The notes under the pieces were generated by a model. It saw only the letters and a program-made list of their open reading frames with translations, made no database searches and was not told the DNA's origin. From Pseudomonadales bacterium (GTDB lineage Bacteria > Pseudomonadota > Gammaproteobacteria > Pseudomonadales > CAWVSB01): a stretch of DNA of 64,000 nt. Below are positions 2,219 through 18,709 of this stretch, piece by piece (position 1 is the first letter of the stretch; every line of letters starts with the position of its first letter). The position numbers and the translations under genes are program-made. The stretch is taken from NCBI GenBank assembly GCA_036960375.1, contig JBALVY010000011.1, positions 69,290 through 133,289 of the forward strand, written 5' to 3'.

Positions 2219-3253
2219 ATGCAAGACAATGCCATTAGCAGTTTAGAACAGACCTTGATACGGGGCAGCGGCAGAGCGCTTTGGTTGATTGATGAGCAAA
2301 CTGATGTCACACAATTCTCATCAATGGCAAATAATAGTGAATTGCAATGTCTGACCAACCGCATCGATCAGCTATCCATATTAGAAACATTCAATATAGA
2401 CTCGCGCATCAACGACTTCGATATTTCAGGCATTGCGGCACCCCAGCGGATATTTCACCGTATATCCAAGCAAAAAGCACTGGTTCACCACATCATTAAT
2501 CAGGCGGCCGATCTGCTACCAGCCAACGGTGAATTATGGTTAAGCGGTTTTAAATCTGAAGGTATTAAAACCTATTTGAAAAAAGCACAAGACAGACTCG
2601 GCGGCTCGTTGGATATTAAGCGAGGAAAAAATTCTCTATATACCGGCAGTATCAGCATGGGAAGGAAGGGCAACGTCCTTAAAGATGACGACTACGCCGT
2701 AATTCGCCCAGCGGTACATGAAGACGATAAAGATTATTATAGTAAACCCGGTGTTTATGGCTGGCAGAAGATCGATAGCGGAAGCCGAATACTGAAACAA
2801 CAGCTTATCGAAGCGATTGCGCCGACGGAGAAAAGCCTGGAGATACTCGATCTGGGGTGTGGCTATGGCTATCTTTCTGTTGCGGCCAGTGCACTGGGAA
2901 AAACCTCTATTACCGCTACCGACAATAACCTTGCGGCAATTTCATCGTGCCGCAAAAACTTCGAAATTCACAATATTACAGGGCAGTGTGTTCTGGCCGA
3001 TTGTGGCGAGGGGATTGACCAGCTATTTGACCTGGTGATATGCAACCCCCCGTTTCATCAAGGTTTCTCTGTCGATGGTGACCTAACGGAAAGGTTTCTC
3101 ACATCAGCACGCAATCATCTCAAAAAAGACGGCATGGCGCTGTTTGTTGTTAATGAATTTATAGCCTTGCCCAAAAAGGCCAGCGCGCTGTCTTTTAAGG
3201 TCAGCGAACTCAGCCATCAATCCGGTTTCAGAGTCTATAAGTTAAACTTATGA
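2219..3253 (+). CDS. Class I SAM-dependent methyltransferase, RsmC/RlmG-like (MTS family)
   Basis: LDLGCGYG motif I, NPPFH motif IV, PGVYGWQKIDSGS resembling the RsmC PGVFS..LD.GS segment. Confidence 0.85.
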   Translation: MQDNAISSLEQTLIRGSGRALWLIDEQTDVTQFSSMANNSELQCLTNRIDQLSILETFNIDSRINDFDISGIAAPQRIFHRISKQKALVHHIINQAADLLPANGELWLSGFKSEGIKTYLKKAQDRLGGSLDIKRGKNSLYTGSISMGRKGNVLKDDDYAVIRPAVHEDDKDYYSKPGVYGWQKIDSGSRILKQQLIEAIAPTEKSLEILDLGCGYGYLSVAASALGKTSITATDNNLAAISSCRKNFEIHNITGQCVLADCGEGIDQLFDLVICNPPFHQGFSVDGDLTERFLTSARNHLKKDGMALFVVNEFIALPKKASALSFKVSELSHQSGFRVYKLNL

Positions 3254-4311
3254 ATACAATTCCACTATCCCCAAAAGACATCACAGCCGAATGGCTTTCG
3301 ACCGTATTATCCAAATCCTATCCGGGCACCAAGGTAACCAGAGTGAACATTCTGGATGCCCACTACGGCACCACGGGTCGCGCAAAACTTGGTCTGGAAT
3401 ACGCTCAAGCTGGCAACCAACCTGATTTTATGTTCGCGAAATTTCCCCCGACTGACGAGCAGCAGAAAGCTTTTGTTATTGCTACCGGTATGGGCAGACG
3501 AGAGGCCATGTTTTATCGCGACCTGTCGACAAACTTTCCTGCCAGAGTGCCCGCTTGTTATTATTCAGACTGTAACGAATCGGGCGATCATTACTTGATG
3601 CTGCTGGAAGACCTGGAACACAGTGGCTGTAGTTTCCAAAACGCTACAAACCAATATTCCATTGACTACGTAAAACGCGTATTGGCCTGCTTCGCCAGTT
3701 TTCACGCTATGTACTGGCAGTCGCCTCAATTCTCGGCTCGGCTGGCCTGGGTAGAGCCACTTCAGTCTCATCCCATTGCGGTACCATTGGTTAGCCAGGC
3801 CTTGGCAACCTATCGCAATGAGATGCCCCCAGTTTTTGCCGAAATGGCAGAACTGTTTATTGAAAAAAGTGAAACCATTCATGAGTTATGGCGCAGTGGC
3901 ATAGAAACTCTGGTTCATGGTGATGTGCACGACGGCAATCTGTTTGCAGATGGTGATGCACCGGGCTTTCTGGATTGGGCACTGTGCGCCAGAGCTTCGG
4001 GAATGCGAGATGTGGCCTATTTTTTGGCCGCCACCTTAAACCGGGACGACCGGCAACAATCTCAACATGAGTTATTGCAGTATTACCGTGATCAACTAGA
4101 ACTCGGCGGCATCACTCCACCCTCGCAGGAAGAAATGTGGCAGCAGTACCAGTGGCATGCGGCCTATGTCTGGGTCGGAGCAACTACAACTCTTGCAATG
4201 GGAGAAGCCTGGCAGCCGATAAGCTATACCCGAAAGTCTCTTGAACGAATCAATCATGCCCTGCTAGATATCGATTCAGTCGCTTCAATCAGTAAGGCTA
4301 TCGCCCGCTAA
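3250..4311 (+). CDS. APH/choline kinase-like phosphotransferase
   Basis: Brenner motif LVHGDVHDGNL and FLDW metal-binding motif; LLLEDL hinge. Confidence 0.88.
   Translation: MNTIPLSPKDITAEWLSTVLSKSYPGTKVTRVNILDAHYGTTGRAKLGLEYAQAGNQPDFMFAKFPPTDEQQKAFVIATGMGRREAMFYRDLSTNFPARVPACYYSDCNESGDHYLMLLEDLEHSGCSFQNATNQYSIDYVKRVLACFASFHAMYWQSPQFSARLAWVEPLQSHPIAVPLVSQALATYRNEMPPVFAEMAELFIEKSETIHELWRSGIETLVHGDVHDGNLFADGDAPGFLDWALCARASGMRDVAYFLAATLNRDDRQQSQHELLQYYRDQLELGGITPPSQEEMWQQYQWHAAYVWVGATTTLAMGEAWQPISYTRKSLERINHALLDIDSVASISKAIAR
4192..4308 (+). repeat. Left copy of a diverged direct repeat (3' end of the phosphotransferase gene)
   Basis: Encodes LAMGEAWQPISYTRKSLERINHALLDIDSVASISKAIAR; aligns without gaps to 17860-17976. 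Confidence 0.93.
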
Positions 4312-4442
4312 GGCATACCAATCAAGAATACCCGGGTCTGCTCGAAGCTCCCTTCTAGCCATAGCCTAAAATTGAAAAGGAAAACCGTTAACGTCGGCAA
4401 TACCCACTTGTTGCAAAGGCAATGACACATCCCCGCTTATAG

Positions 4443-5399
4443 CTAAGCCGTGTTAGGCTGTACGGCGATTACGATTTTTCCCACGCAACGTTTGGTCGCA
4501 ATTTTTTGGTGCCCCTTTTGGACTTTGTTCAAAGGTAATACCTCATCAATGATACTGCGTAACTTACCTTGCTCGGCCCATTGCGCCAACATCTCCAGGT
4601 CAACTCCGCTGGATTTACACATCACGAAACGTGCTTGTTGTCGGCGCCAGCGGTTGGCGATAAACATCGAGAAAATCACATTCAGACTGGGAACGGCTGC
4701 GGCAAAGTGACCACGGCGGGATAACTGCTTGCGTGCCTTACCGTAGGCTAAGGAGCCGACCACATCATAAATTGCATCATAGACGGTATGCCCGTCCAAG
4801 GCAGGTGATTGATGGTAGTCAATGACCTTGTCTGCACCCAAACCAACGACTAGATCGGCATTGACGCCACTGCATACAGCGGTAACCGTGGCGCCCATCG
4901 CTTTGGCAATTTGTATGGCATAGGTGCCAACGCCGCCCGATGCGCCGACAATTAGCACGTGTTGACCTGCTTGCAGTTGGCAATCATCGCGTAAGCCCTG
5001 CAGCGCGGTGAGTCCGGCGAGGGGCATTGCCGCCGCTTCAATATAGCTAAGGGAAGACGGCTTTTTGGCCACGGCAGACGCGCCAATCGCCACAAATTCA
5101 GCCTGAGTGTGACCACAGAGCTGGTCCGAGCGAGCGTAGACGGCATCGCCTACCTTAAGATGGGTAACGGCCGCACCCACTTCATGCACTACCCCACTGG
5201 CATCAAAGCCCATGATCTTTGGAAAGGACTTGCCAAAGCGAAACGACATCGACCCGTCGCGTATTTTAGTATCAATGGGGTTTATCGAAGCGTAGTAGAC
5301 TTCAATCAGTACCTGATCTGCCTGCGGCGAAGGGCGTTCTAATTCTCTTAGTTGTAGAACATCCACCGAGCCATATTTGTCTATGACAACAGCTTGCAT
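4443..5399 (-). CDS. NADP-dependent oxidoreductase (MDR / quinone oxidoreductase family)
   Basis: INPID, GFDASG, AAAMPLAGLTALQ and GASGGVG motifs, GKIV C-terminus. Start moved to MQAVVI at 5399 (the ORF track extends to 5495). Confidence 0.9.
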   Translation of the reverse strand: MQAVVIDKYGSVDVLQLRELERPSPQADQVLIEVYYASINPIDTKIRDGSMSFRFGKSFPKIMGFDASGVVHEVGAAVTHLKVGDAVYARSDQLCGHTQAEFVAIGASAVAKKPSSLSYIEAAAMPLAGLTALQGLRDDCQLQAGQHVLIVGASGGVGTYAIQIAKAMGATVTAVCSGVNADLVVGLGADKVIDYHQSPALDGHTVYDAIYDVVGSLAYGKARKQLSRRGHFAAAVPSLNVIFSMFIANRWRRQQARFVMCKSSGVDLEMLAQWAEQGKLRSIIDEVLPLNKVQKGHQKIATKRCVGKIVIAVQPNTA

Positions 5400-5555
5400 A
5401 GTCGTTCTTTCCTTCGTGATAGACTCGCCATGGTAGCGCATCAAGCCTGCAAACCAATAAAGCTTATCGATTTGATAATGGCCGTTTTTGGGCATGGCAA
5501 GGTGTTGGCTGTCGCGCTGGTATTTGCTGCTGGCAACTTGCCACTGGCCTAGCGA

Positions 5556-6452
5556 TTATAGAACCTGACTCACCTCATCAGCAATGAAATCAAATACTCG
5601 CCGAACCCTAAGGCTCGTTCGCAATTCTTGATGACACACCAACCAAACAGGTAGCCGCATTACCGGCCCCATATTGTCAAAAGCACGTATTAAACTTGAG
5701 TCTTTATCACCCATGCTTTCGGGAAAGAAAATCAGCCCCGCCCCTTCTTTGCACAGCCCCAGCTGTAAAATCTGGAATGAAGTAACAAGCTGAAAATTCT
5801 TGTTCGACAACTGCCAACCTTGTTGATTGAGTAGATCATATACCGCATTACTCCGCTCGAAACCTATTATTTGGAGATTGGTGTGTTCAGAAAAATCTGC
5901 AGAGGGAGGTAGCCCTGCCACATAATCCTGAGTGCCATAGAGCCAAATGGCTTCTTCACCAAGTTTTTTGGCGATCAAATCATTCTGCTGCGGATGAAAG
6001 TTTCGAATCGCGATATCCGCTTCCCGCCGTTTTAAGTCACTCGGCGCGTTAGTCACAACCACTTCAATATCGATACCCGGTTCTTCGCGACGTAATTTGG
6101 CAATAATTTTAGGTAGACGAAAAGCCGCATCTAGCTCTCCAGCAGAAACGACCACAGAACCTTCTATTCGTTGAGATTGACCAGAGGCTGATAGTGAAAA
6201 CAACAGCGCTGCATCACCCATTGAGCGAGCGTGCTCTAATAATCCCATACCGCTGCCAGTCAAGACCAACCGCTGCCCAACTCGCTCAAATAATGTGATA
6301 CCCAACTCTGCCTCGAGCGCGGCCACTTGACGGCTCAAAGTTGGCTGAGTCATACCCAAAGCTTTAGCTGCAGCAGATAAGGTGCCTTCTTCTGCAGTGA
6401 CTAAAAATGCGCGGGTGCGATTCCAGTCGAAATTTACGGATTCCCACTTCAT
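5556..6452 (-). CDS. LysR-family transcriptional regulator
   Basis: HTH GTLSAAAKALGMTQPTLSRQVAALE, DLKRREADIAIR, LRVRRVFDF; divergent from the reductase at 6553. Confidence 0.93.
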   Translation of the reverse strand: MKWESVNFDWNRTRAFLVTAEEGTLSAAAKALGMTQPTLSRQVAALEAELGITLFERVGQRLVLTGSGMGLLEHARSMGDAALLFSLSASGQSQRIEGSVVVSAGELDAAFRLPKIIAKLRREEPGIDIEVVVTNAPSDLKRREADIAIRNFHPQQNDLIAKKLGEEAIWLYGTQDYVAGLPPSADFSEHTNLQIIGFERSNAVYDLLNQQGWQLSNKNFQLVTSFQILQLGLCKEGAGLIFFPESMGDKDSSLIRAFDNMGPVMRLPVWLVCHQELRTSLRVRRVFDFIADEVSQVL

Positions 6453-6552
6453 ACAAAAACACATACCTTTTATACATTTATAGCCAATGTACCCTCTACT
6501 AGCGTATATGTATAGTGGCGGCCAATCAATTGAAATGTGGAGATAAAGGCTT

Positions 6553-7278
6553 ATGACAATTCTTGTTGTTGGAGCAAGTGGGGCTACGGGCCGATTACTC
6601 GTGGAGCAATTACTCGCCCAAGGGCAAAAAGTTAGAATTATCGTGCGTTCAGCCGAGAGTTTACCGAATAGACTAAAACAAAATGATCAGCTCACCATCA
6701 CTGAAGCAAGTCTACTGGATTTGACTCAGACACAGCTTGAAGAGCTGGTTCAGGGGTGTAGCGCGGTGGCTTCATGCCTTGGCCACAACTTAACATTTAA
6801 AGGAATGTTTGGTCAGCCTAGACGTTTGGTGAGCGATGCCATTAAACGTTTATGCGATGCCATTGAGGAAACTGAGCCAACAATGCCGGTAAAATGTATT
6901 TTAATGAACACTACCGGCAACCAAAATAAGCAAGCGGGTGAAAGCGTATCAACAACACAATCTCTGGTTGTGGCATTGATAAGGCACCTGTTGCCACCCC
7001 ATGCAGACAACGAAATGGCAGCGGCCTACCTGCAGTCGCGTTATCCAACAGAAAGCCAGACAGTAGAATGGACTACTGTGCGCCCCGATAGTCTTATAGA
7101 TGAAGAATCCGTGAATGAATATAATATCTATCCATCTCCCATTCGCAGTGCTATTTTTGATGCAGGCAAAACGAGTAGGATAAACGTAGCCAACTTTATG
7201 GCAGAGTTGATTCTTAACAGCGCCACATGGGATAAATGGAAGGGACAAATGCCCGTGATTTACAACACTTCGTATTAA
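6553..7278 (+). CDS. NAD(P)H-binding atypical SDR (BVR-B/flavin reductase-like)
   Basis: N-terminal GASGATG Rossmann motif, WTTVRPDSL, SRINVANFM. Confidence 0.87.
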   Translation: MTILVVGASGATGRLLVEQLLAQGQKVRIIVRSAESLPNRLKQNDQLTITEASLLDLTQTQLEELVQGCSAVASCLGHNLTFKGMFGQPRRLVSDAIKRLCDAIEETEPTMPVKCILMNTTGNQNKQAGESVSTTQSLVVALIRHLLPPHADNEMAAAYLQSRYPTESQTVEWTTVRPDSLIDEESVNEYNIYPSPIRSAIFDAGKTSRINVANFMAELILNSATWDKWKGQMPVIYNTSY

Positions 7279-7469
7279 CATAAGGGGCAGTTTCAACATA
7301 TTCGAATGCCACACCTTTGTGGAGCAAGCTCATCCACGTTCGTTGTGCGAAAGGGCAATACCAAGCGCTGTATAATTTCATTGTCATTCCTATATATTAC
7401 GCAGACAAAATAAGTTGCGAGCCGGCCATTGTAAGGCTGAGGCCTTCTACTGAATGTCCCGACACCACA

Positions 7470-7748
7470 TTATGCTACCAGATGAAACTGACTATCCATG
7501 CCCTGATCACGGATAGGGATAATCGCCTGATAGGCGTCGGACTGATACCAATTCACCGCGCTTTCCCGATCGGGAAACTGGATCACCACCTTAGTGCTAA
7601 ATCTAGCATCACCGTGCAGAGCTTTTATAGGCCCCTTGGCCAGAAACTCCCCGCCGTAAGGCTTTAATGTGTCGGCAGCCAGAGCACTGTAGGCGCCGAG
7701 TTTTTGTGTATCGGTGGGTGTTAAATCGACAATAATTAACGTAGACAT
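7470..7748 (-). CDS. DUF1330 family protein
   Basis: YGGEFLAKG, VVIQFPDRESAVNWYQSDAYQAIIPIR pattern; 92 aa. Confidence 0.88.
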   Translation of the reverse strand: MSTLIIVDLTPTDTQKLGAYSALAADTLKPYGGEFLAKGPIKALHGDARFSTKVVIQFPDRESAVNWYQSDAYQAIIPIRDQGMDSQFHLVA

Positions 7749-7885
7749 ATCTTTTTCCTCGTTTAATAGAATTGAAAATGGGTATCGATAAAAGACTATT
7801 GTTGGTTAGCCGTGAATAAGACTCGGATTGATAGGAACCATCATTAGTCACAACAAATAAGCCCGCCGCTGAGATCATTTTTCCT

Positions 7886-9988
7886 TCATAACTTTAACGT
7901 AATTTTTACCACATCCTGTCCTGTCACCGCAGCAGGCACAGCACAACATAATAGAACTTCATCGGCATTGAGTGGCACCGAAGGCTCAGTCAGATAGCTC
8001 ACAACGCCAGAATTTAAGCCCACTTTACAGGCTCCACATTGACCGCTGCGGCAACCGAACTCAGGGCTAAGACCGTGTGCCTCGGCGAAGTCTAGCAAAC
8101 TGCCATCACTCTTAGACCAGGCTTGCTCTACCTGAGAATCAGAAAACTCTACGACCGCCTGACTGGCGACTGTCAAGGGCTGAAATTTGTTGCTGGCCTG
8201 ATCGCAGGCTCGCCGCAACGATGCTGGGCCAAATTCTTCGGCTAAAATCCGCACATCATTGACACCTAACTCCCTTAACATGTCATACATGGATTGCATA
8301 AAAGACGCTGGCCCACACAGATAAAAATCGTAATCGTCCAACGGCAGTATCGCTTGCAACAACCCCGCTGAAATTCGCCCGTGAGCGTGATAGTCCTGCC
8401 CAGCTACCATGCTGTCGTCGATCTGGCTCAATGCCCAGAAACTGCGAATATTACCTTCCGACTGCTGCTCAATATCTTTAAGCTCTTGGAAAAAAGCGCG
8501 CTGCTGGCCATTACTGGCAGCGCAAATCAAGGTTGTTGGTCGAATACTTCGCGTACGCATACCTTCAATTAAGGCATGTCGCGCCATCGAGACCATCGGG
8601 GTTATGCCTACACCACCGGCCAACAATACTGCCGGACGCTGCACTGAAGCATCAAAGCTAAACGCGCCGGAAGGTGCTTTGGCGTAGATAATATCACCCA
8701 CGCTTAGCTGACCATGGAGGTAATTGGAGAACAAGCCATCGGGCATATGGTTAGCTAAGGACTGTTCACGCTTAACACTGATGCGAAGTTGTTGATCGGC
8801 AGGCGCACTTGAAACAGTGTATGTTCTGATCGTATCCTTAGCGTCAACGGCGAGCTTAACAGTCAGAAACTGGCCCGGTTTAAAACTCGGTACAACGTGG
8901 CCTTCCGCTTGTAGATAAAAGGACTTTATCACGCTACTTTCATTGACAATTTTTTCCACCACATAGGGTAACCACTGCTGCCGCTGAGATTCGGCCTGTT
9001 GTTTTTGCTGCGCTTCACCCCAGGTACCGGTGAGTAAAGTATTAGGCGAATATTCATCCATTGCCCAACGCAGCGGCAAACCATTTTCTATCCATCGACC
9101 GTGATCGATATGAAATTTCCACAGCCGTTCGGCACCATCGAAGAATTGTGCATCCGGGCTGTTCCACAATATTTCTACGGTACCGGTCAAGGTTAATAGA
9201 TGACCGTTTTCAAAATCCAAAAACAATAATCCCGCTTTGGCGTTCTCAACAAAATTGCCCAGGGTATTAAAGTGATTATTGCCCAGATAATCCGGAATGG
9301 TGAGCGTGGTAACGTTGTCGACACGGATAAATCCAGGTCTGCCACCACGGTGAGAAACATCGGCGCCTTCGCTCGCCTCACCACTGCCATTGCTAACAGA
9401 ACTGGCAACAAAAAAGGTATCGCTGTATTGAATTAGCCTGCGGGCTTTTTCGTCTAGTTCAGTCATCTCTTCAATAGACCTTGCCGGCAGGGTCTCGCTG
9501 TCTACCCGCTCAAGCTGCCGCGTTTGAATATATTGAGGGCAGTTGCCGAACGACTGGTCAACCGCGAGTCGAATGTGGTCGCTGGAGGATTCAACAATAT
9601 GGGCGGCCAATCGATTGCGTCGACGGCTGGGAAGATCGATGCCCAGTAAACCAAGCCGAGTCCCTGCTTGCAGGCCGTCGGCTAACGGATCACCGGCCAC
9701 TGGCGCACAATGGATGTCCAGGGTTTTATCATCCTTTGAGCTAATAAAACCGGGGTCATTAAACAGAATCGATGCCCAGGGCCAGCCTGTGTTATCGGCG
9801 TGCCCAACAAAAACAAAGGGTAATTGGTGATAAAAATCCCTGTGTTGAGCCGGCATGTGATCGCGTATTACGCGACTACCGAAACGCTCCATTTGTTCGC
9901 GAACACCCAGCTGTTGCTGCACTTGTTGCTCACCACGGTGAAACGGTGAAATAGCCGCTTTGGCTAATAGGTTGGCATTGTTTGTCAT
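7886..9988 (-). CDS. Fusion of pyridoxamine-5'-phosphate-oxidase-like split barrels, FAD/NAD FNR domain and C-terminal 2Fe-2S ferredoxin
   Basis: DQSFGNCPQYIQ, DVSHRGGRPGF, PDYLGNNHFNTLGN; RTYTVSS, GGVGITP, YLCGP; CRSGQCGAC...LCC. Start taken at MTNNAN. Confidence 0.9.
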   Translation of the reverse strand: MTNNANLLAKAAISPFHRGEQQVQQQLGVREQMERFGSRVIRDHMPAQHRDFYHQLPFVFVGHADNTGWPWASILFNDPGFISSKDDKTLDIHCAPVAGDPLADGLQAGTRLGLLGIDLPSRRRNRLAAHIVESSSDHIRLAVDQSFGNCPQYIQTRQLERVDSETLPARSIEEMTELDEKARRLIQYSDTFFVASSVSNGSGEASEGADVSHRGGRPGFIRVDNVTTLTIPDYLGNNHFNTLGNFVENAKAGLLFLDFENGHLLTLTGTVEILWNSPDAQFFDGAERLWKFHIDHGRWIENGLPLRWAMDEYSPNTLLTGTWGEAQQKQQAESQRQQWLPYVVEKIVNESSVIKSFYLQAEGHVVPSFKPGQFLTVKLAVDAKDTIRTYTVSSAPADQQLRISVKREQSLANHMPDGLFSNYLHGQLSVGDIIYAKAPSGAFSFDASVQRPAVLLAGGVGITPMVSMARHALIEGMRTRSIRPTTLICAASNGQQRAFFQELKDIEQQSEGNIRSFWALSQIDDSMVAGQDYHAHGRISAGLLQAILPLDDYDFYLCGPASFMQSMYDMLRELGVNDVRILAEEFGPASLRRACDQASNKFQPLTVASQAVVEFSDSQVEQAWSKSDGSLLDFAEAHGLSPEFGCRSGQCGACKVGLNSGVVSYLTEPSVPLNADEVLLCCAVPAAVTGQDVVKITLKL

Positions 9989-10204
9989 TGTTATCGCTCT
10001 GGTTCGTCTGTTGACCAATAGACCCTGTAACGAGCTTCGGTTTACTCAATATCAATCAGTTCAATAGGTTTATCACCAACCAAATTGGCCGGCCTAACAC
10101 GTTGCTAAAGGCTGACATCTCTAGGGGTTCAACACCATTGGCTAGTAACATCATAAATCAGCCAGATCATGTTCTAACGATCTGACTGAGTCATTAACCG
10201 CAGT

Positions 10205-10828
10205 TTACGCCGCCAGGCCTACCGCTGTGGCCTGCATGGGCACAAAACCTGGTAGCTGCTCAATACGCTGTAACCAAGCCCGAATATGAGCGTAGTTTTC
10301 CAACGACACATCACCTTCAGGGGCATGGGCTATATAGGCGTAGTTGGCAACATCCGCGAGGGTGGGTTTATCCGTCGCCAACCAATTGCGACCTTCAAGA
10401 TGCGCATCAATATTACTCAAGAAATCGTGGGAAGCACTAATAGCTGCCTGATGATCCAAACCCGCACCGAAGACATTAACCAAGCGAGCAGCCGCGGGGC
10501 CGTAAGCCACTTTACCAGCCGCAAAAGATAAAAAGCGTTGCACTTCGGCCGCACCTAGAGCGTCCTCCGGCAACCATTGGCGAGTAGCATCATACTTCGA
10601 TGCCAGGTAAATCAGGATGGCGTTGGAATCTGACAGCGTAGTGTCGCTATCCTCCAAAACCGGTACCTGACCAAAACGATTTTTTTGCAAAAACTCTGTA
10701 TTTTTTTGCGCGCCAGCAGCAAGGTCGACGTCGATAATATCAGCACCTAGCCCAAGAATGGATAAGAGCAGCTGTACACGATGTGAGTGGCCGGATAGTG
10801 CGTGACGGTAAAGTTTTATGGTAGACAT
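10205..10828 (-). CDS. Glutathione S-transferase family protein
   Basis: LSGHSHRV, GQVPVLED, DSNAILIYLA, TLADVANY. Confidence 0.93.
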   Translation of the reverse strand: MSTIKLYRHALSGHSHRVQLLLSILGLGADIIDVDLAAGAQKNTEFLQKNRFGQVPVLEDSDTTLSDSNAILIYLASKYDATRQWLPEDALGAAEVQRFLSFAAGKVAYGPAAARLVNVFGAGLDHQAAISASHDFLSNIDAHLEGRNWLATDKPTLADVANYAYIAHAPEGDVSLENYAHIRAWLQRIEQLPGFVPMQATAVGLAA

Positions 10829-10911
10829 GGTATTTTCCTTTTAGTAGTTACTGTGTGTTAACGGTTAAAAACTATCTTGAAATATAAAAAAGTTGAATCA
10901 AAATTCTTAAG

Positions 10912-11322
10912 TCATAAAACGCGGCGTTCATTTTCATTAATACTCTGCTCATTGATACTGGCATCGCGATTTTGCATCAGGCCCTCAGCATCGAAGTCCC
11001 AGTTCTCGTTTCCGTAGGCGCGAAACCACTGACCACTGTCGTCGTGGTATTCATACTCAAAGTGCACTGCGATGCGATTTCCGGCAAAGGTAAACAATTC
11101 TTTTTTCAGACGGTAATCGAGTTCTCGCTGCCACTTGCGGGTCAGTAACTGGGCGATGGCCTCCCTGCCCTCTACAAACTCACTTCGGTTTCGCCATTCC
11201 GAATTTTTGGTATAAGCCAGTACAATAAGGCTCGGGTCTTTTCCATTCCACAGGTCTTCGGCGCGCTGGACTTTCAGCTTTGCCGTCTCCAGGTTGAAAG
11301 GAGGTTTAAGTTGTTCGCTCAT
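10912..11322 (-). CDS. DUF1348 / NTF2-like (SnoaL-like) protein
   Basis: KVQRAEDLWN, WRNRSEF, KWQRELDYRLKKEL, WFRAYGNENW signature segments. Confidence 0.9.
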   Translation of the reverse strand: MSEQLKPPFNLETAKLKVQRAEDLWNGKDPSLIVLAYTKNSEWRNRSEFVEGREAIAQLLTRKWQRELDYRLKKELFTFAGNRIAVHFEYEYHDDSGQWFRAYGNENWDFDAEGLMQNRDASINEQSINENERRVL

Positions 11323-11351
11323 TGGCTTGCTCCGTGACAAGGGCGTTAATG

Positions 11352-11367
11352 GACACCGATCGGTTTA
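11352..11367. promoter_or_regulatory. Putative TetR operator O2 (GACACCGATCGGTTTA)
   Basis: 14/16 match to the perfect palindrome 29 bp away; lies just downstream of the predicted DUF1348 transcription start. Confidence 0.75.
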
Positions 11368-11376
11368 CTTGAAACA

Positions 11377-11405
11377 AAGATACACCGATCGGTGTACCTT
11401 GTCAA
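11377..11405 (-). promoter_or_regulatory. sigma70 promoter of the DUF1348 gene with operator O1 (perfect palindrome TACACCGATCGGTGTA, 11381-11396) over the spacer
   Basis: Minus strand: TTGACA (11405-11400), 17 nt spacer, TATCTT (11382-11377); the 16-bp perfect palindrome spans the spacer and the edge of the -10. Confidence 0.82.
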
Positions 11406-11529
11406 AGACTTTTTCCTATTTATTTACAAAGTACTTTTATATCAGTGTATTAGAGCTAATATAAAACCAGGCAATAGTTTTAATTGAGGTAAAAATCGGC
11501 TTAATATAGTATTACTTACGACTTAATAG

Positions 11530-11545
11530 TAAACTCATCGGTTAA
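11530..11545. promoter_or_regulatory. Possible degenerate third operator upstream of tetR (TAAACTCATCGGTTAA)
   Basis: 11/16 match to O1, 25 bp before the tetR ATG; position fits autorepression. Confidence 0.45.
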
Positions 11546-11570
11546 GATTCGATATCCGCAGGGGAGTACC

Positions 11571-12146
11571 ATGCCGGCACTATCAAAACGAGACATCATT
11601 GTCGCTACAGCGCTTAAGCTGTTTTATCGGCATGGCTTTAATGCCACCGGCGTTGAGCGCATTATTAAAGAAGCAGGCGTTTCAAAGAAAACCCTCTACA
11701 ACCATTTTAAATCCAAAGATGAGTTAGTACTGGCGACACTGCGACAGCGCGACGAATTATTCAGGAATAATTTAATGCGCGAGACAGAACGCCTTGGTGA
11801 CACCGCACGGGAAAGACTGCTGAGTGTTTTTGATGTTCACCACCAGTGGTTCCAACAAAAAGATTTTTCAGGCTGCATGTTTATTAATGCTGCTGCAGAG
11901 TTTTCTTCCCATCAAAATCCCAACCATATACTCAGCGCGGAGCATAAACGACTGGTTCGCCATTACATTCGCGGCCTAGCCGAGCAAGCTGGTGCAAACA
12001 ATGCTGAAACGCTATCAAAACAGTTGAATTTACTCTTGGAAGGGGCAATTGTTGACGCCTATGTTAGTGGTAATAGCGAAGCAGCAATAATAGCGAAGGC
12101 TATGGCGTCAGTGTTTATCGAAAAAGCTCTTGCCAGGGTTCACTAG
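11571..12146 (+). CDS. TetR/AcrR regulator, NemR-like
   Basis: HTH GFNATGVERIIKEAGVSKKTLYNHFKSKDEL; C-terminal SGCMFINAAAE. Confidence 0.92.
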   Translation: MPALSKRDIIVATALKLFYRHGFNATGVERIIKEAGVSKKTLYNHFKSKDELVLATLRQRDELFRNNLMRETERLGDTARERLLSVFDVHHQWFQQKDFSGCMFINAAAEFSSHQNPNHILSAEHKRLVRHYIRGLAEQAGANNAETLSKQLNLLLEGAIVDAYVSGNSEAAIIAKAMASVFIEKALARVH

Positions 12147-12293
12147 ACTGTCGAGCTCTGAAGGCCGATGGAAATTGGATAAAGGTATCAAGGGTGACTT
12201 ATGGGCCATCCATGGTAGCGGTATTTACGGAGTCTAAGTACCAGCTAGCACCCAAGTAAATGTCGGAAACCCACGCTGAATGGTATGTGAAAT

Positions 12294-13217
12294 ATGTCTA
12301 AAAATCCAAACATGTACTTGGATAATCCGGATGCGCTTAGCTCGGTGCTGTCTAAGCTTCAACTAAATGCCCAGGTATACAGTGACGGCGATTTCTGTGG
12401 CGCCTGGGCAGTAGATACCTCGGGCAGCCGGCGTATACCTTTTCACCTTATTGGCCGGGGCGAGGCCTGGCTGCATATGGATGACAGGCCTACCCAGATG
12501 TTGTCTTCGGGAGATCTGGTGATTTTCCCCGGAGATAAACAGCATGTAATCGCCAGCTCCAGCGAGAAGCCACCGCAAGGCTTGATCAATTCAGAAGTTC
12601 CCATCAATCAGAAGCCGATGACCAATCTGGTGTGCGGTTTTTTTGAATTTAAAAACAAGTCGGCCTGGCCTCTGCTGGATTCGCTGGCGGCGGTCATTGT
12701 TATCGATTTGAGCGATATGAACATATCATCCGTCATCCGAGGTTTGATCGACCTGATGGTGGCTGAACTCGATAGGCGTGCACCAGGATTTTATACGGTC
12801 ATTAATCATCTGGCCTATTTATTGTTTGTCGAGGTGCTACGCCTGCAGATTCAACAAGGGAAGGTAGATTCCGGTTTGCTGGCGGCCCTGTTCGACAGCA
12901 AAATCAGTAGAGCACTGAGTGCAATGCACAGTTACCCAGGGCGGCGCTGGACCTTGGAATCACTTGCGGCGGAGGCTGCCATGGGGCGATCTTCTTTTGC
13001 CCACCAGTTCAATGAATTAACCGGAATACCGCCAATGCAATACCTGACGTCCTGGCGGATGCAGGAGGCAAAGACGCTATTGCAGACAACTACGCTGTCA
13101 TTGGCTCACATTGCAGAACAATGCGGTTATGAGTCTGAGGTGGCGTTCAGGAAAGCCTTTAAAAAAACGGTTGGTACACCGCCAGGAGCGGTGCGAAGGC
13201 GAAAAATCCAGATATGA
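12294..13217 (+). CDS. AraC-family regulator with N-terminal cupin (RclR-like architecture)
   Basis: DALSSVL start, FHLI..GEAWL, GDLVIFP, LVCG; WTLESLA..AAMGRSSFA, CGYESEVAFRKAFKK. Confidence 0.9.
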   Translation: MSKNPNMYLDNPDALSSVLSKLQLNAQVYSDGDFCGAWAVDTSGSRRIPFHLIGRGEAWLHMDDRPTQMLSSGDLVIFPGDKQHVIASSSEKPPQGLINSEVPINQKPMTNLVCGFFEFKNKSAWPLLDSLAAVIVIDLSDMNISSVIRGLIDLMVAELDRRAPGFYTVINHLAYLLFVEVLRLQIQQGKVDSGLLAALFDSKISRALSAMHSYPGRRWTLESLAAEAAMGRSSFAHQFNELTGIPPMQYLTSWRMQEAKTLLQTTTLSLAHIAEQCGYESEVAFRKAFKKTVGTPPGAVRRRKIQI

Positions 13218-13249
13218 TAAGCCAGCCATTCCGTCACTTTAAATACTAT

Positions 13250-13984
13250 CTACTCACCGGCGAGCGTCATGGCTGTCTCGAGTTCTTCCTCTTCAAAATC
13301 CCAATCAGAATCAAAGTCACTGAAGGTATCCTCTGATCGGCCATCGTTTACCAGCAATTCACGGCGCTGCAAATAAACCTCACGGATAAACGCATATTCA
13401 TCACCAGTGATTAGTTTTTCCGCTTCCAGCAGCGAAGCTCGATCATTGACACCCTCACTTGCCACCAGTGACGAGCGCTCCCAGCCCCCCAGGAATTGCA
13501 GGGGATTGAGCAGTACATCAACAAGCACGCCGGCTGAATCTCTTACCGTACTGGGCCCAATAAAGGGGAGCTCAATATACGCACCCGAATCGACCGACCA
13601 ATATCCCAGTGTCTGGCCAAAATCCTCGTAGTGTTTTTCAAGACCTAGGGCAGGTTTGGCTACATCGAACAACCCACCGACACCCACCGTGGTATTTACC
13701 GCCAACCTTCCGGTATCCGCGGCAGCCCGCTTGAGCTTGAGTTGTAGCAGATCGTTAATGATGACCCTGACATCGTCAATGTTATTAAAGAAACTAGTCA
13801 CACGTCGCTTCACGAAGCCTGGCGTAACGGTGGTGTAGGTCTCGGCTAGTGGCTTGAGAACCGTGGTATCCATGGCCTTGTTGAAACCATGCACAGAGCG
13901 GTTCATTCCAATCAAGGGATCCTGGCCAGCATGCGCAGTTAAGGGTATGGCAAATAACCACACTGCAATCATCACAGCGAACAT
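13250..13984 (-). CDS. MlaA/VacJ family protein (no visible lipobox)
   Basis: DPL..MNR..HGFN, NTTVGVGGLFDVA, EDFGQTLGYW, YIELPFIGPSTVRD. Start uncertain (13984 or 14095). Confidence 0.85.
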   Translation of the reverse strand: MFAVMIAVWLFAIPLTAHAGQDPLIGMNRSVHGFNKAMDTTVLKPLAETYTTVTPGFVKRRVTSFFNNIDDVRVIINDLLQLKLKRAAADTGRLAVNTTVGVGGLFDVAKPALGLEKHYEDFGQTLGYWSVDSGAYIELPFIGPSTVRDSAGVLVDVLLNPLQFLGGWERSSLVASEGVNDRASLLEAEKLITGDEYAFIREVYLQRRELLVNDGRSEDTFSDFDSDWDFEEEELETAMTLAGE

Positions 13985-14200
13985 AAGAAACGTATAGTCA
14001 TTACCAGCTCGGCGTATGGCCGCCCCGGATTCATAGATATCAAATGCCGCCAATGTTGCTGTTGTACTACAGTTCACAGTGCTACTCCTATTCATCGCCT
14101 CAAATTGAGAACAGCACTATAGTCTTCCAGCCAAGGAGTATCTGCGCCAGATCGTCCGTATTATGTGTCTGTTAGTCCATGCATAGCCGGCTTGCTCTCT

Positions 14201-14419
14201 CACGAAAATGTCACGGCGGCAGATGGAAAACTATCAATAGCTGCTCACCAGGAAATGATCAATGGCTATCCTTGTAGCTCCGGAAGGCTAAGAACAAGCG
14301 GTAAATTCGATACGCGGTATGGACGTATAGAGGCGAGTATTCAAGTGCCGGACGGGACCGGGCTTTCGCCGGCTTTCTGGATGTTGCCCACGGGTTCGCA
14401 ATGTGGCGGCTGGGTGGCT
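14201..14419 (+). pseudogene. Internal fragment of a GH16 beta-glucanase (laminarinase-like)
   Basis: ENVTAADGKL...SSGRLRTSGKFDTRYGRIEASIQVPDGTGLSPAFWMLP...GGWVA; homology stops just before the expected EIDIME catalytic motif. Confidence 0.8.
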
Positions 14420-14650
14420 CAAGTATGGCGCCCGATCAATCGGAACGGCGTCCATCAATGGAAGCCCTATAAGCATCGGTTGGACCCGTTAAAAAGGCGC
14501 GCAACTCAAATCTTGATCATGAGTAGCCGCTTATACTGTACAATGTTGCAACGTCGCCCTCACTACAAAAACATCCGACGATGTTTTATTGCTGGGGGTT
14601 TAGCCACTAAATCCTATGTACGGGCGTGAGGCTAGTAATAGATATTAGAA

Positions 14651-15664
14651 ATGGGAATAGACATGAAAGGTTTAGTAGGTATCATACTGATTTTTTTTAG
14701 CATGATGGCTTCGGCTGTAGCTAACGAACCGTGCGGTAAAGTTACCATCGCAGACATGAATTGGAGTTCCGCAACTTTTATTGCTCATGTCGATCAGTTC
14801 ATTCTGCAGCATGGCTACGGTTGTGATGTTGGACTCGTTCCAGGCGATACTATGCCAACCACCATATCGATGATGGAAAAAGGAGAGCCGGACATAGCAC
14901 CGGAACTTTGGGTCAATTCCGCAAGAGATGCAATTGATAAAGCGGTTGCTGATAAGCTCTTGAGAATTGCTGGAAGCTCATTGTCTGACGGAGGCGAAGA
15001 GGGTTTTTGGGTGCCGGAATATATGGTCAATAAGGACCCAAGTATCGCGACTATCTCAGGTGTGATGGCCAATGCCAAATTGTTTAAACACCCGGAAGAT
15101 CGATCAAAATCGGGCTTCTTCGGGTGTCCCGCTGGTTGGAACTGCCAAATTAGCGCTGAGCATCTTTTCGAGGCATTAAAATTGGCAGACGCCGGGTTTG
15201 AATTAGTGGATCCGGGTTCAAGCGCTGGCCTTGCAGGATCTCTTGCAAAAGCCTATGAGCGCGGTGAAGGTTGGTTTGGTTACTATTGGGCTCCGACCGC
15301 GGTTTTAGGTAAATACAAAATGGTAAAGGTTGATTTTGGTTCCGGAATAGATTTCGACCATTTTACGAGCTGTACGACACAGGAAGAATGTGAAGATCCT
15401 AGAGTAACAATGTATCCCCCGTCTCCTGTCCATACGGTTACGACTGAAGCTTTTGCATCCAAATTACCCGCCGTTTTTGAATACTTATCAAAACGCTCTT
15501 TTACCAATGCTCAGATGAACACTTTGCTCGCCTGGATGGAAGATAATCAAGCTGAGGGGGATATCATAATGGAAGAGTTTCTTAATAATCATGAGTCCAC
15601 TTGGACTCTTTGGGTCTCATCCGAAGTCGCGACGAAAGTCAAAAAGGCACTTGCAGAGTTGTAG
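14651..15664 (+). CDS. proX: Glycine betaine/proline ABC transporter substrate-binding protein
   Basis: Signal peptide, MNWSSA, PELW, EGFWVP, GCPAGWNC, GYYWAPT; start may be 14663. Confidence 0.85.
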   Translation: MGIDMKGLVGIILIFFSMMASAVANEPCGKVTIADMNWSSATFIAHVDQFILQHGYGCDVGLVPGDTMPTTISMMEKGEPDIAPELWVNSARDAIDKAVADKLLRIAGSSLSDGGEEGFWVPEYMVNKDPSIATISGVMANAKLFKHPEDRSKSGFFGCPAGWNCQISAEHLFEALKLADAGFELVDPGSSAGLAGSLAKAYERGEGWFGYYWAPTAVLGKYKMVKVDFGSGIDFDHFTSCTTQEECEDPRVTMYPPSPVHTVTTEAFASKLPAVFEYLSKRSFTNAQMNTLLAWMEDNQAEGDIIMEEFLNNHESTWTLWVSSEVATKVKKALAEL

Positions 15665-15738
15665 AGAAGTCAGCCAGGAATAATGTATCGATATCTTTTG
15701 TTTTTGATTTGTCACAAGAAAACCAGCGGAGCACCAGT

Positions 15739-16635
15739 ATGGCTAAAGAATCCTGGCTAACGAAATTTCCCGCAATGGATCGCCAAGACCTGACCGCAAT
15801 TAAGAAAAGCCTCGATGGGGCTTATCGGGAATTTTCTCGTAATTATGGCGAGCTTATCGAGTCCTTTTTCGATCCGCTTCTTTATTTTCTTGTTTGGTTT
15901 GAAAAACTATTGTTAGAAACGCCGTGGTGGATTGTTATTATCGTTGTCACTGGCATTGTTCACCTCTCAGCTCGATCTGTAAAACTCTCGGTTGGCGTCG
16001 TTATCGCTTTATGCCTTATTGGATATTTTGGTATGTGGGACAATACCATGCGTACCTTGAGTATTATTACGGTTTGCACGCTCGTATCCATCGCTCTCGG
16101 AATTCCCATTGGTATAATGATGGCTCGCTCAAATCGGGTGCAATCTATTGTTAATCCCATTCTCGATATAATGCAAACCATGCCTGCCTTTGTTTATCTC
16201 ATTCCGGTAGTCATGCTGTTGGGCATCGGTAAGATTCCGGGTGTTATTGCAGTGGTAATTTATGCTATTCCACCGGTCATCAGATTGACCAATCTTGGTA
16301 TTCGGTTAGTCGATCCGGAGGTGCTAGAAGCGGCGACTGCTTATGGCGCGAATAAGTCGCAACGCCTGTGGGGTGTGCAATTACCGCTGGCAATGCCTAC
16401 GATTATGGCGGGCGTCAACCAGACGATCATGATGGCATTGGCAATGGTTGTTGTCGCTTCAATGATAGGCGTAAAGGGGCTCGGGCAGCCAGTTCTTAAG
16501 TCAATTACGAATCAGTATTTTACCTTGGGTTTATTTAATGGACTTGCCATAGTTGCGTTAGCCATCATCTTTGACAGGGTTTCACAAGCCTATGCAAAAA
16601 GAACGCAAAGACATATGGAAGGCACCCATTCATGA
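15739..16635 (+). CDS. proW: Glycine betaine/proline ABC transporter permease
   Basis: PILDIMQTMPAFVYLIP, IRLTNLGIR, EAATAYGA, GVNQTIMMAL; start at MAKESW. Confidence 0.9.
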   Translation: MAKESWLTKFPAMDRQDLTAIKKSLDGAYREFSRNYGELIESFFDPLLYFLVWFEKLLLETPWWIVIIVVTGIVHLSARSVKLSVGVVIALCLIGYFGMWDNTMRTLSIITVCTLVSIALGIPIGIMMARSNRVQSIVNPILDIMQTMPAFVYLIPVVMLLGIGKIPGVIAVVIYAIPPVIRLTNLGIRLVDPEVLEAATAYGANKSQRLWGVQLPLAMPTIMAGVNQTIMMALAMVVVASMIGVKGLGQPVLKSITNQYFTLGLFNGLAIVALAIIFDRVSQAYAKRTQRHMEGTHS

Positions 16636-17819
16636 CCGATCCACTAATCCGTATTGAAGGACTGTATAAAATCTTTGGCAAGAGCCCAAAAACCATTGTT
16701 CCGCTAGTAAAGTCCGGCAAACACAAAGATGAAATTCTTGCTGAAACGGCTCATACAGTTGGACTAAAGGATATTAATCTAAGCATCGAAGCTGGAAAAA
16801 TTTATGTCATTATGGGTTTGTCCGGATCGGGGAAGTCGACCCTTATTCGCCACCTAAACCGTCTGATTGATCCAACAGAAGGCCGCATTATTGTTGACGG
16901 AACTGATGTCATGCAGTTGTCACAGGCAGAACTGGAGGACTTTCGTAAACACAAAATGTCGATGGTGTTTCAGCGTTTTGGTTTAATGCCTCATCGCACA
17001 GTACTTGAAAATGTAGCCTACGGATTAACAGTGCAACGCGTTGACAAAAAGGAACGAGAAAGCAAAGCTATGCAATGGTTGGCGACGGTTGGGCTTACTG
17101 GCTATGAAAATCAATACCCGTCACAGCTGTCCGGTGGTCAACAGCAGAGAGTGGGTCTTGCCCGTGCTCTGTGCACTGACGCTGATATACTTCTCATGGA
17201 CGAGGCATTCTCAGCTCTTGACCCGCTGATCCGAAGCGAAATGCAAGATCAGTTAATTGAGTTACAAGAAAAGCTACGCAAAACCATTGTTTTCATTACT
17301 CACGATTTGGATGAAGCTCTACGTTTGGGTGATCGCATTGCCATATTGAAAGACGGAGAACTCGTCCAGGAAGGGACCCCCGGAGAAATCCTGCTGTCGC
17401 CGGCTGACGACTATGTTGCGGCATTTGTTAAAGGTGTCAATCGGGCTCGCGCGCTCACGGTAAAAAACATTATGCAATCATCGGCTGATAGAATCACTGC
17501 TCCAACTATCGGGGAGGCTCTTTCGCAAATGAAGCAGTTCTCTAACAACTATGGCTATGTTGTTAATAGTGATGGCTATCAGGGCATTGTCCTTCAAACG
17601 ACGCTTGAGAACGCGGCTCAAACGAATTCGAAAGGAGAGCTCGGCCAAGAATTTATGGAAAACGTGAATGCTATCTCACCAGATTCTCTGCTCGAAGAAA
17701 TTATTCCCGAGACACTTGAAGCCAATTACCCACTTCCCGTCGTCGGAAAAAAAGGCGATCTGCAAGGCCAGTTACCTCGTTCTTCACTTGCCAAAGTATT
17801 GGGTTCGAATCGTAGTTAA
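16632..17819 (+). CDS. proV: Glycine betaine/proline ABC transporter ATPase with degenerate CBS pair
   Basis: GLSGSGKS, LSGGQQQRVGLARAL, LLMDEAFSALDPLIR. Confidence 0.92.
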   Translation: MTDPLIRIEGLYKIFGKSPKTIVPLVKSGKHKDEILAETAHTVGLKDINLSIEAGKIYVIMGLSGSGKSTLIRHLNRLIDPTEGRIIVDGTDVMQLSQAELEDFRKHKMSMVFQRFGLMPHRTVLENVAYGLTVQRVDKKERESKAMQWLATVGLTGYENQYPSQLSGGQQQRVGLARALCTDADILLMDEAFSALDPLIRSEMQDQLIELQEKLRKTIVFITHDLDEALRLGDRIAILKDGELVQEGTPGEILLSPADDYVAAFVKGVNRARALTVKNIMQSSADRITAPTIGEALSQMKQFSNNYGYVVNSDGYQGIVLQTTLENAAQTNSKGELGQEFMENVNAISPDSLLEEIIPETLEANYPLPVVGKKGDLQGQLPRSSLAKVLGSNRS

Positions 17820-17859
17820 ACCATCCATAGTCAAATGATCCTATTCAGTTTCCTGCATA

Positions 17860-17976
17860 TTGGCGACGGGAGAGGCCTGGCTGCCGCTAAGCTATACTCG
17901 CAAATCACTTGAGCGAATCCATCATGCGTTGCTGGATATCGATTCAATGGCTTCAATTAGCAAGGCCATTGCCCGC
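17860..17976 (+). pseudogene. Orphan diverged copy of the phosphotransferase 3' end (right direct repeat)
   Basis: Encodes LATGEAWLPLSYTRKSLERIHHALLDIDSMASISKAIAR. Over 17869-17976 vs 4201-4308: 18/108 nt differences, 32/36 aa identical, 13 synonymous and 4 non-synonymous codon changes (hand count). Confidence 0.92.
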
Positions 17977-17998
17977 CAAACCATTTCTAATCGAATTA

Positions 17999-18709
17999 TC
18001 AGATAACTGTACGATCTTCTACGACTGAATTTGTTTCAAATCGATAACGCATATTTCGATAGACACAGACATCAGTTACATTTTCCGGCACACCCTTAGG
18101 CATACAACGATAATTAGTCGAAACACGATAGTGATCTTTTACCGGTAACACACGATGCCATGTGTGCCCGTGTATTAGTAATAGCGTGCCTTGTTGTGGG
18201 AAAATCACCAGTTGATCGTGTAAATCCTCATCGACTTTGCCCGCAGTAATTGCTCCGCGCCGATGCGATCCTGGTACTACTAAAACCTGACCACCAATTA
18301 TATCGGTGATGTGGTGAGTATACATAAGGCGATTCATGTTAAATTGGCTTGTGTCTTCTGGCGGACAATCCTGATGCCACGCCTGCCCCTTTGAGTTAGG
18401 TTTAGAATACATTGACATACAATAAAGACTGCGCCAGCCTTCACCCAGAATTGCTTCCGTAAGTAAAAACAGACGCGGATCATTTTCACCTTCATCAAAA
18501 GCATTCACGCCTTCATGCTGAGGAAACCAAGGAATCACCTCGGTCGCAGATTTTTTCAAGAACTCTTCATTGTGGCAAAATTCAGGATTATATCCAAAAT
18601 GGTCAAGAATAAGTTGGTGGTATTTTTCTGACAATTCAACTGAAAAGAAATCTTCCAGAAGTAAATAACCTTGATCCCAGAACGTCTTTGCCAAATCAAT
18701 ATAATTCAT
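17999..18709 (-). CDS. PhyH-family Fe(II)/2-oxoglutarate dioxygenase
   Basis: FWDQGYLLLEDFFS start, WHQD, VVPGSH, distal TWHR and RVS. Confidence 0.85.
   Translation of the reverse strand: MNYIDLAKTFWDQGYLLLEDFFSVELSEKYHQLILDHFGYNPEFCHNEEFLKKSATEVIPWFPQHEGVNAFDEGENDPRLFLLTEAILGEGWRSLYCMSMYSKPNSKGQAWHQDCPPEDTSQFNMNRLMYTHHITDIIGGQVLVVPGSHRRGAITAGKVDEDLHDQLVIFPQQGTLLLIHGHTWHRVLPVKDHYRVSTNYRCMPKGVPENVTDVCVYRNMRYRFETNSVVEDRTVI

Follow-up and report, generated by a model that had tools for sequence, protein, structure and literature searches.

Within the 64,000-nt stretch of DNA analysed here (the window), which comes from a marine Pseudomonadales bacterium, the 3' end of a predicted small-molecule kinase gene occurs twice in the same orientation, once as the end of the intact gene and once as an orphaned fragment on the far side of 13.5 kb of unrelated genes. 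The window forms part of a 138-kb contig (C1) of a 4.76-Mb genome assembly, and coordinates are positions within the window unless a contig is named. The features that bear directly on the repeat are the two copies of the kinase end, the intact gene and the gene to the right of the orphan:

3250..4311, plus strand: intact phosphotransferase gene of the EcKL/APH family, 353 aa (Pfam PF02958, 3e-19, and PF01636; HGDxxxxN motif in the translation)
4201..4311, plus strand: resident copy of the repeat, comprising kinase codons 318-353 and the stop codon (alignment)
17869..17979, plus strand: orphan kinase 3' relic, corresponding to codons 318-353, with the stop codon changed to CAA (alignment, blastn, tblastn)
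17999..18709, minus strand: PhyH-family dioxygenase gene, convergent on the orphan (Pfam)

A diverged repeat of the kinase 3' end

In a pairwise alignment, positions 4192-4311 pair with 17860-17979 as a direct repeat without a single indel. Homology is reliable from 4201/17869 (GGGAGA) to just beyond the stop codon; the three codons on the 5' side of this point match at only 5 of 9 nt, which may be chance. A same-orientation, indel-free duplication of the gene end had been described in an earlier note on this DNA, and both its coordinates and its alignment are confirmed. The two copies share ~83% of their nucleotides, differing at 17-19% of positions, and the match is far above chance (E 5e-14 by blastn against the whole genome, E 8e-14 by tblastn). 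The segment is present in two copies in the whole assembly, with no others. The longest run of identity between the copies is 12 nt (GATATCGATTCA), followed by runs of 10, 8, 7, 7 and 6 nt; the identical blocks at the 5' edge of the repeat measure 6 and 7 nt (GGGAGA and GCCTGGC) and those inside it 10-12 nt, lengths that would suit a crossover core but do not exceed those expected at 83% identity. A second assembly, GCA_036961145.1 (99.94% identical), has the same architecture and an identical orphan region, which excludes an assembly artefact.

In L014 of this sister assembly, 9 single-nucleotide polymorphisms (SNPs) were seen within 14.3 kb. One of them, a synonymous change at position 4230 in the resident copy, matches the base found in the orphan.

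The differences between the copies bear the mark of selection on protein sequence. Across the 36 codons of 4201-4308 there are 18 nucleotide differences, and the TAA stop codon of the intact kinase reads CAA in the orphan; the earlier count of 18 differences in 108 nt, its synonymous bias and the altered stop are thus all reproduced by the alignment. Third positions dominate (5, 2 and 15 differences at codon positions 1, 2 and 3 over 4192-4308), and the Nei-Gojobori method applied to 4201-4308 gives Sd 13.5 and Nd 4.5, corresponding to dS 0.85, dN 0.057 and an omega of 0.07. An orphan that had been non-coding ever since a duplication would be predicted to show ~61% non-synonymous changes; at most 5 of the 18 are non-synonymous (P = 0.005), and therefore both copies evolved as coding sequence, as had been proposed. 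The 36 codons of the orphan contain neither an indel nor an internal stop.

In its present form the orphan is a fragment, with no start-codon context and no 5' part (317 codons are missing). Two of its substitutions, Q322L and V344M, hit positions that are conserved in 116/119 and 105/119 homologues, respectively; the resident copy retains the family-conserved M317, Q322 and V344. The changes at conserved positions, together with the lost stop codon, indicate a short period of decay. Judging from the pattern of substitutions, the orphan descends from a once-intact, selected full-length gene, which was coding for most of the divergence and was truncated late. The orphan tail is probably non-functional. 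We found no promoter or terminator pattern in it and no ATG or GTG start, the only candidate being a TTG at 17860; a role as a small open reading frame (ORF) or as a regulatory element was considered, and no Shine-Dalgarno-like sequence was seen upstream. The PhyH-family gene that converges on the orphan has its nearest homologue, at 83% aa identity, on a contig (L026) where it has other neighbours, and no kinase remnant lies downstream of that homologue.

The intact kinase is an accessory gene. Among 5.8e9 proteins its best homologue is 57% identical, the other kinase paralogues in the genome are 28-31% identical, and the nearest homologues belong to Halieaceae metagenome-assembled genomes (MAGs), in which they occupy unrelated contexts. 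There is no orthologue in the same-genus genomes and no DNA match in 41 relatives or in 400 genomes of the order, and two degenerate DNA patterns returned 0 matches over JGI metagenome contigs; viral contigs with this gene end were likewise not found. Because no relative apart from the 99.94% identical sister assembly carries the kinase (no homologue exceeds 57% identity), no empty site is findable for comparison.

At its 5' end, the kinase ATG overlaps the stop codon of an RsmC-like methyltransferase gene (ATGA, 3250-3253), an overlap resembling the operon's other tight junctions. Though the kinase is absent from the genus, this junction looks adapted or old.

Composition of the 13.5-kb interval

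From the intact kinase end to the orphan, the interval contains the following features (where a row covers genes or sequence without a common strand, none is given):

4321..4416, minus strand: relic of a class II aldolase-like gene, its last 32 codons with an in-frame stop (tblastx, E 2.4e-7)
4443..5495, minus strand: Zn-dependent alcohol dehydrogenase (ADH)-like gene (Pfam)
5556..7278: divergent pair encoding a LysR regulator and an NmrA-like NAD(P)H-binding protein, an independent module (Pfam)
7470..12146: module of DUF1330, a PNPOx-FNR-ferredoxin fusion, GST, DUF1348 and TetR genes (Pfam)
12294..14095: AraC/cupin regulator and a second MlaA paralogue (Pfam)
14204..14420, plus strand: internal relic of a GH16 glycoside hydrolase gene, 72 codons, truncated on both sides (similarity to a gene on contig C28)
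14526..17838, plus strand: proXWV, a glycine betaine/proline ABC transporter block, an import (identity to foreign contigs)
17839..17868: junction of ~30 nt, sequence without assignment, from the end of the homology flanking proV to the start of the kinase homology

The aldolase relic lies in the 131-nt spacer between the stop codon of the kinase and that of the ADH gene, and is 62.5% identical at the amino acid level (tblastx) to the C-terminus of a PF00596 Aldolase_II protein encoded elsewhere in the genome (C13:229868-230695). What remains here is the decayed end of an old neighbouring gene, convergent with the kinase, into which the ADH block cut. With this decayed convergent tail in its 3' flank, the resident end of the kinase can be placed in an old chromosomal context. 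For the ADH gene, a scan of genome contigs found no close relative in the genome collection; in the sister assembly the call of this gene is split at a SNP at position 5000, probably a nonsense change.

Several of the remaining modules can be followed individually. The LysR-NmrA pair is found at 67-73% nucleotide identity in three genomes (G313, G203, G350), unlinked to the other modules. The block from DUF1330 to TetR is kept in a same-genus genome (G003, contig C6; 73-81% aa identity) and in G203 and G178, in other neighbourhoods; at the nucleotide level its identity is 68-81%, in G003 as well as in two further families of the order. The G003 module is on another contig, and the genes next to it have their counterparts here on contigs C21, C19, C25 and C13. 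The PNPOx-GST-DUF1348 core of the module also occurs on rhizobial megaplasmids, and the module behaves as a portable one. The second MlaA shares 43% identity with the copy at C25:813871. The GH16 relic, which lies within a spurious 154-aa ORF, is 74% identical at the amino acid level to residues 109-180 of a 537-aa GH16 protein (C28:75728-77341), from whose intact gene it is separated by a dS of 0.885 with an omega of 0.16.

The proXWV block has the most clearly foreign relatives. It is 86-87% identical at the nucleotide level to metagenome contigs (L032-L034 and L037), one of them labelled Oceanicoccus sp., in which it lies between a MarR or alpha/beta-hydrolase gene and an M48 peptidase gene, a context that is conserved across more distant contigs. 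This genome has no close orthologue of the genes that flank proXWV on the foreign contigs, and proX was not found in any of the three same-genus genomes. Given relatives in a different foreign context and its absence from the genus, we identify proXWV as a horizontal import in its own right. For the MarR gene, which the MAG contigs and G003 share, the surrounding synteny was uninformative. The sampled relatives of proXWV lie at a dS of 0.35-0.83. Homology to the foreign contigs ends ~20 nt past the proV stop codon, near 17838, so that the orphan is a truncated fragment adjoining horizontally acquired DNA, its 5' end lying no more than 30 nt from the end of the proXWV homology. On the other side of proXWV, the GH16 relic is truncated towards the block. 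Overall, the arrangement of relics and modules points to at least three illegitimate junctions in the interval.

As a whole, the interval gives no sign of being a single element. All of its ORFs could be assigned to metabolic, regulatory or transport families, the largest intergenic gap is 230 nt, and GC content is flat across both repeat junctions. Searched at the DNA level, 400 genomes of the order did not yield the interval as one unit; its modules are unlinked in other genomes and on plasmids, and plasmid records hold single modules only. None of the adjacencies kinase-PhyH, kinase-ADH or proV-kinase was seen in the contexts of the closest kinase and PhyH homologues. These comparisons show that the 13.5 kb is a patchwork of ~7 modules that occur unlinked elsewhere and not one element.

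The absence of a recombinase from the interval, which the earlier note had remarked on, holds up in the ORF families, in the gap sizes (230 nt at most) and in a six-frame scan with PF00589, which found no tyrosine recombinase domain anywhere on contig C1. A tblastn search with the genome's own integrases against positions 1-30000 of the window detected no relic (nothing below E 0.2). No serine recombinase or transposase is present in the interval, as judged by ORF assignments and gap sizes and not by a six-frame scan with hidden Markov models. The same note had proposed a search of the genome for an integrase with a matching attachment (att) core; this was carried out, and no matching core lies near any of the genome's 7 recombinase loci. 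Neither a cognate integrase nor an element with the same att site was found within the genome, nor did viral contigs yield one, and in a read-level test for an excised circle neither junction was present in any public sequencing run.

Origin of the orphan tail

Most probably the repeat is an ordinary scar, left in a heavily rearranged region as genes were gained and lost piecemeal, and does not mark the border of a self-contained mobile island. Of the specific histories that could leave such a scar, we give about an even chance to one in which a second copy of the kinase was cut as illegitimate recombination joined proXWV, with the orphan left as a relic at the junction. We infer that this second, once-intact kinase gene lay head-to-tail upstream of the PhyH gene and that the arrival of proXWV truncated it. 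At a dS of ~0.85 from the resident kinase, the gene would have been either its paralogue or a xenologue acquired from a related lineage. Its first ~317 codons would have been removed by a recombinase-independent insertion-deletion, for which the joining of the horizontally acquired proXWV block is the most likely event, and the rest of the 13.5 kb would have been added piecemeal by separate illegitimate events. The truncation of the GH16 relic towards proXWV on one side, and the end of the orphan within 30 nt of it on the other, fit such an insertion-deletion junction. Consistent with this, the dS of the GH16 relic (0.885) is nearly equal to that of the kinase relic, three gene relics (aldolase-II tail, GH16 piece and kinase tail) are found in one region, and the orphan has the signs of a pseudogene fragment in its missing 5' part, its lost stop codon and its changes at conserved positions.

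Several observations weigh against a truncated second copy. No genome was found with a full-length second kinase upstream of PhyH, the ancestral state being a reconstruction. Two kinase copies of ~83% nucleotide identity must be supposed within 14 kb and in the same orientation, in a genome whose other paralogues of the kinase are only 28-31% identical. The orphan is the exact 3' end of the gene up to the stop codon, which is also the leftover expected from an integrative element that targets gene 3' ends. The agreement in dS between the two relics was computed over 36 and 72 codons and may be fortuitous, and the relatives of proXWV, at dS 0.35-0.83, fix neither the true donor nor the date of the import.

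The last-mentioned kind of element is the basis of the principal alternative, a fossil island of the type that e14 forms in icd, in which a surrogate kinase 3' end would have been integrated at about codon 318 by a tyrosine recombinase and the native tail displaced to the right-hand attachment site (attR). The integrase and the attR arm would later have been lost or overwritten, or the element would always have moved in trans, in the manner of a cis-mobilizable element (CIME). Such an origin would account for a direct repeat of a gene 3' end with an intact gene on the left and a displaced tail on the right, for homology that ends at the stop codon and for divergence with a synonymous bias, which suits a surrogate end kept functional; the short identical blocks at the 5' edge (GGGAGA, GCCTGGC) could represent its core. 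There is also a precedent, in that integration of e14 or phage 21 in icd of Escherichia coli leaves a 163-bp icd' pseudogene, according to the passage on this element in PMC6379469, which cites Hill et al. 1989. We nevertheless consider this origin unlikely, if still worth weighing. The absence of any recombinase, recombinase relic or mobility gene, with gaps of at most 230 nt, would require a scarless loss, and at most 30 nt are left for the element-side arm of attR, since proV with its independent foreign relatives reaches to that point. The cargo is a mosaic that was nowhere encountered as a unit, GC content does not change at the junctions, no second putative att copy lies near any integrase and no viral contigs carry this gene end. 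Moreover, the target kinase, being accessory and absent from the genus (and, at the DNA level, from 400 genomes of the order), would make a poor conserved att site. The earlier note had supposed that the interval arrived as one circle that restored the kinase with a foreign C-terminus, a proposal that the present data do not support: the interval is a mosaic, proXWV is a separate import ending no more than 30 nt from the orphan, and an aldolase-II tail lies beside the intact kinase 3' end. It is likewise improbable that the interval, or an earlier version of it, belongs to a recurring class of islands without an integrase that enter protein-coding genes at their 3' ends, bring a replacement gene end with them and rely for movement in trans on a recombinase that is unlinked or of an unknown kind, the example here being old, diverged and partly overwritten.

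A single event of homology-facilitated illegitimate recombination (HFIR), closely akin to the favoured history, could have brought in a stretch from a related species that already included that species' kinase allele and the assembled 13.5 kb, anchored by homology in the conserved upstream operon or, as a mirror image, in addAB and joined illegitimately at its other end inside the recipient kinase, so that the tail of the recipient (or of the donor) was orphaned; the ~30 nt between the end of proXWV and the orphan would then be filler at the joint. This event would account for the shared orientation and locus with no need of a recombinase, as well as for the sharp 5' breakpoint and an orthologue-like divergence under purifying selection, and HFIR has been credited with orphaned 3' regions in type VI secretion system (T6SS) and Rhs loci (PMC5361080). 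We regard it as rather doubtful here, as three independent relics and a separately traceable proXWV suggest several events, no donor-like genome is known, and anchoring would be very inefficient at a dS of 0.85. A dS of this size is approximately that between Salmonella and E. coli. The homology-driven, Campbell-type capture that the earlier note had entertained, in which a circle bearing only 117 nt of the kinase 3' end integrates by RecA-dependent homologous recombination, has the topology of a single crossover in its favour, as a direct repeat brackets the insert. Efficient RecA pairing requires ~20-30 nt of identity, however, and the copies differ at 17-19% of positions with no identical run longer than 12 nt; the synonymous bias, in addition, means that the differences are older than the event and predate the orphaning, and the capture is very improbable. 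Least credible is that the kinase 3' end was recently duplicated on the spot, in tandem or as a segment, and that the extra copy then drifted neutrally. The closeness of the copies and their common orientation speak for such a duplication; the dS of 0.85, the omega of 0.07 and the lack of an indel or stop in 36 codons speak against it, and it was rejected because no more than 5 of the 18 differences are non-synonymous where ~61% were predicted (P = 0.005); the earlier judgement that such a duplication is unlikely can thus be sharpened to its exclusion.

Known systems and the surrounding region

Orphaned 3' gene regions that arise by displacement or HFIR are known from Rhs, contact-dependent inhibition (CDI) and T6SS effector-immunity loci (PMC5361080). 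The present locus resembles these in having a truncated 3' piece downstream of an intact gene in the same orientation, with acquired DNA between the two and no recombinase, and the mechanism ascribed to those loci is homologous anchoring combined with illegitimate joining (PMC5361080). It differs from them in that the gene encodes a small-molecule kinase, not a polymorphic toxin, and has neither an immunity gene nor an orphan array; furthermore, the DNA between the copies consists of 13.5 kb of unrelated metabolic modules, and there is no apparent selective reason to keep the orphan. With e14 in icd the locus shares a target 3' end present as a direct repeat, of which one copy completes the gene and the other is orphaned, with differences that are mostly silent. 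Unlike the locus described here, which has no mobility gene and a mosaic cargo, e14 encodes an integrase and phage genes and excises; the repeat is also far more diverged here (83% identity), and even other genomes of the genus lack the target gene.

CIMEs, described in Streptococcus, are decayed remnants of integrative and conjugative elements (ICEs) or integrative and mobilizable elements (IMEs) that keep both attachment sites, attL and attR, without an integrase. An integrase-less stretch flanked by direct repeats from a gene 3' end is what we observe as well, but the repeats of CIMEs are near-identical att sites with a cognate ICE integrase in related strains, whereas here runs of at most 12 nt are identical and neither a cognate integrase nor a second att copy was found in this genome. 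The closest likeness is to the ordinary gene remnants found at the borders of imports: the orphan has no start, has lost its stop codon, is changed at conserved residues, adjoins an import and is accompanied by two other gene fragments. Nothing essential sets it apart from such remnants; its one unusual feature, an intact homologue 13.5 kb away in the same orientation, makes the pair mimic att sites.

The locus accordingly calls for caution, in that a diverged direct repeat of a gene 3' end around accessory genes resembles a pair of att sites, yet can arise without a site-specific element; an att-like repeat can form when the edge of an import truncates a second copy of a gene. The finding implies neither a new mechanism nor a new function. 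With its three relics, one import that could be dated (proXWV) and the separately travelling modules, the locus shows legibly how a flexible region is assembled, and it could exemplify recombinase-independent accretion in marine Pseudomonadales.

Rearrangement is not confined to the DNA between the two kinase ends. In two same-genus genomes (G001, G003), a conserved operon of luciferase-like, pseudouridine synthase and methyltransferase genes precedes rapA, yaeQ, a two-component system and rlmD, with addAB coming next. In the genome studied here, rapA-yaeQ does not follow the methyltransferase gene and is located on contig C21 (671-674 kb). Compared with L024 and L025, synteny is broken from 3253 to 23642 of the window, where ~20 kb of lineage-specific genes, the kinase among them, precede addAB. 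The locus is scrambled, and the ancestral gene order has been lost. In the right part of this variable region, a gene of the dihydroxy-acid/6-phosphogluconate dehydratase family (20459-22147) has a GC content of 56-57%, against ~47% around it, and is probably another recent import.

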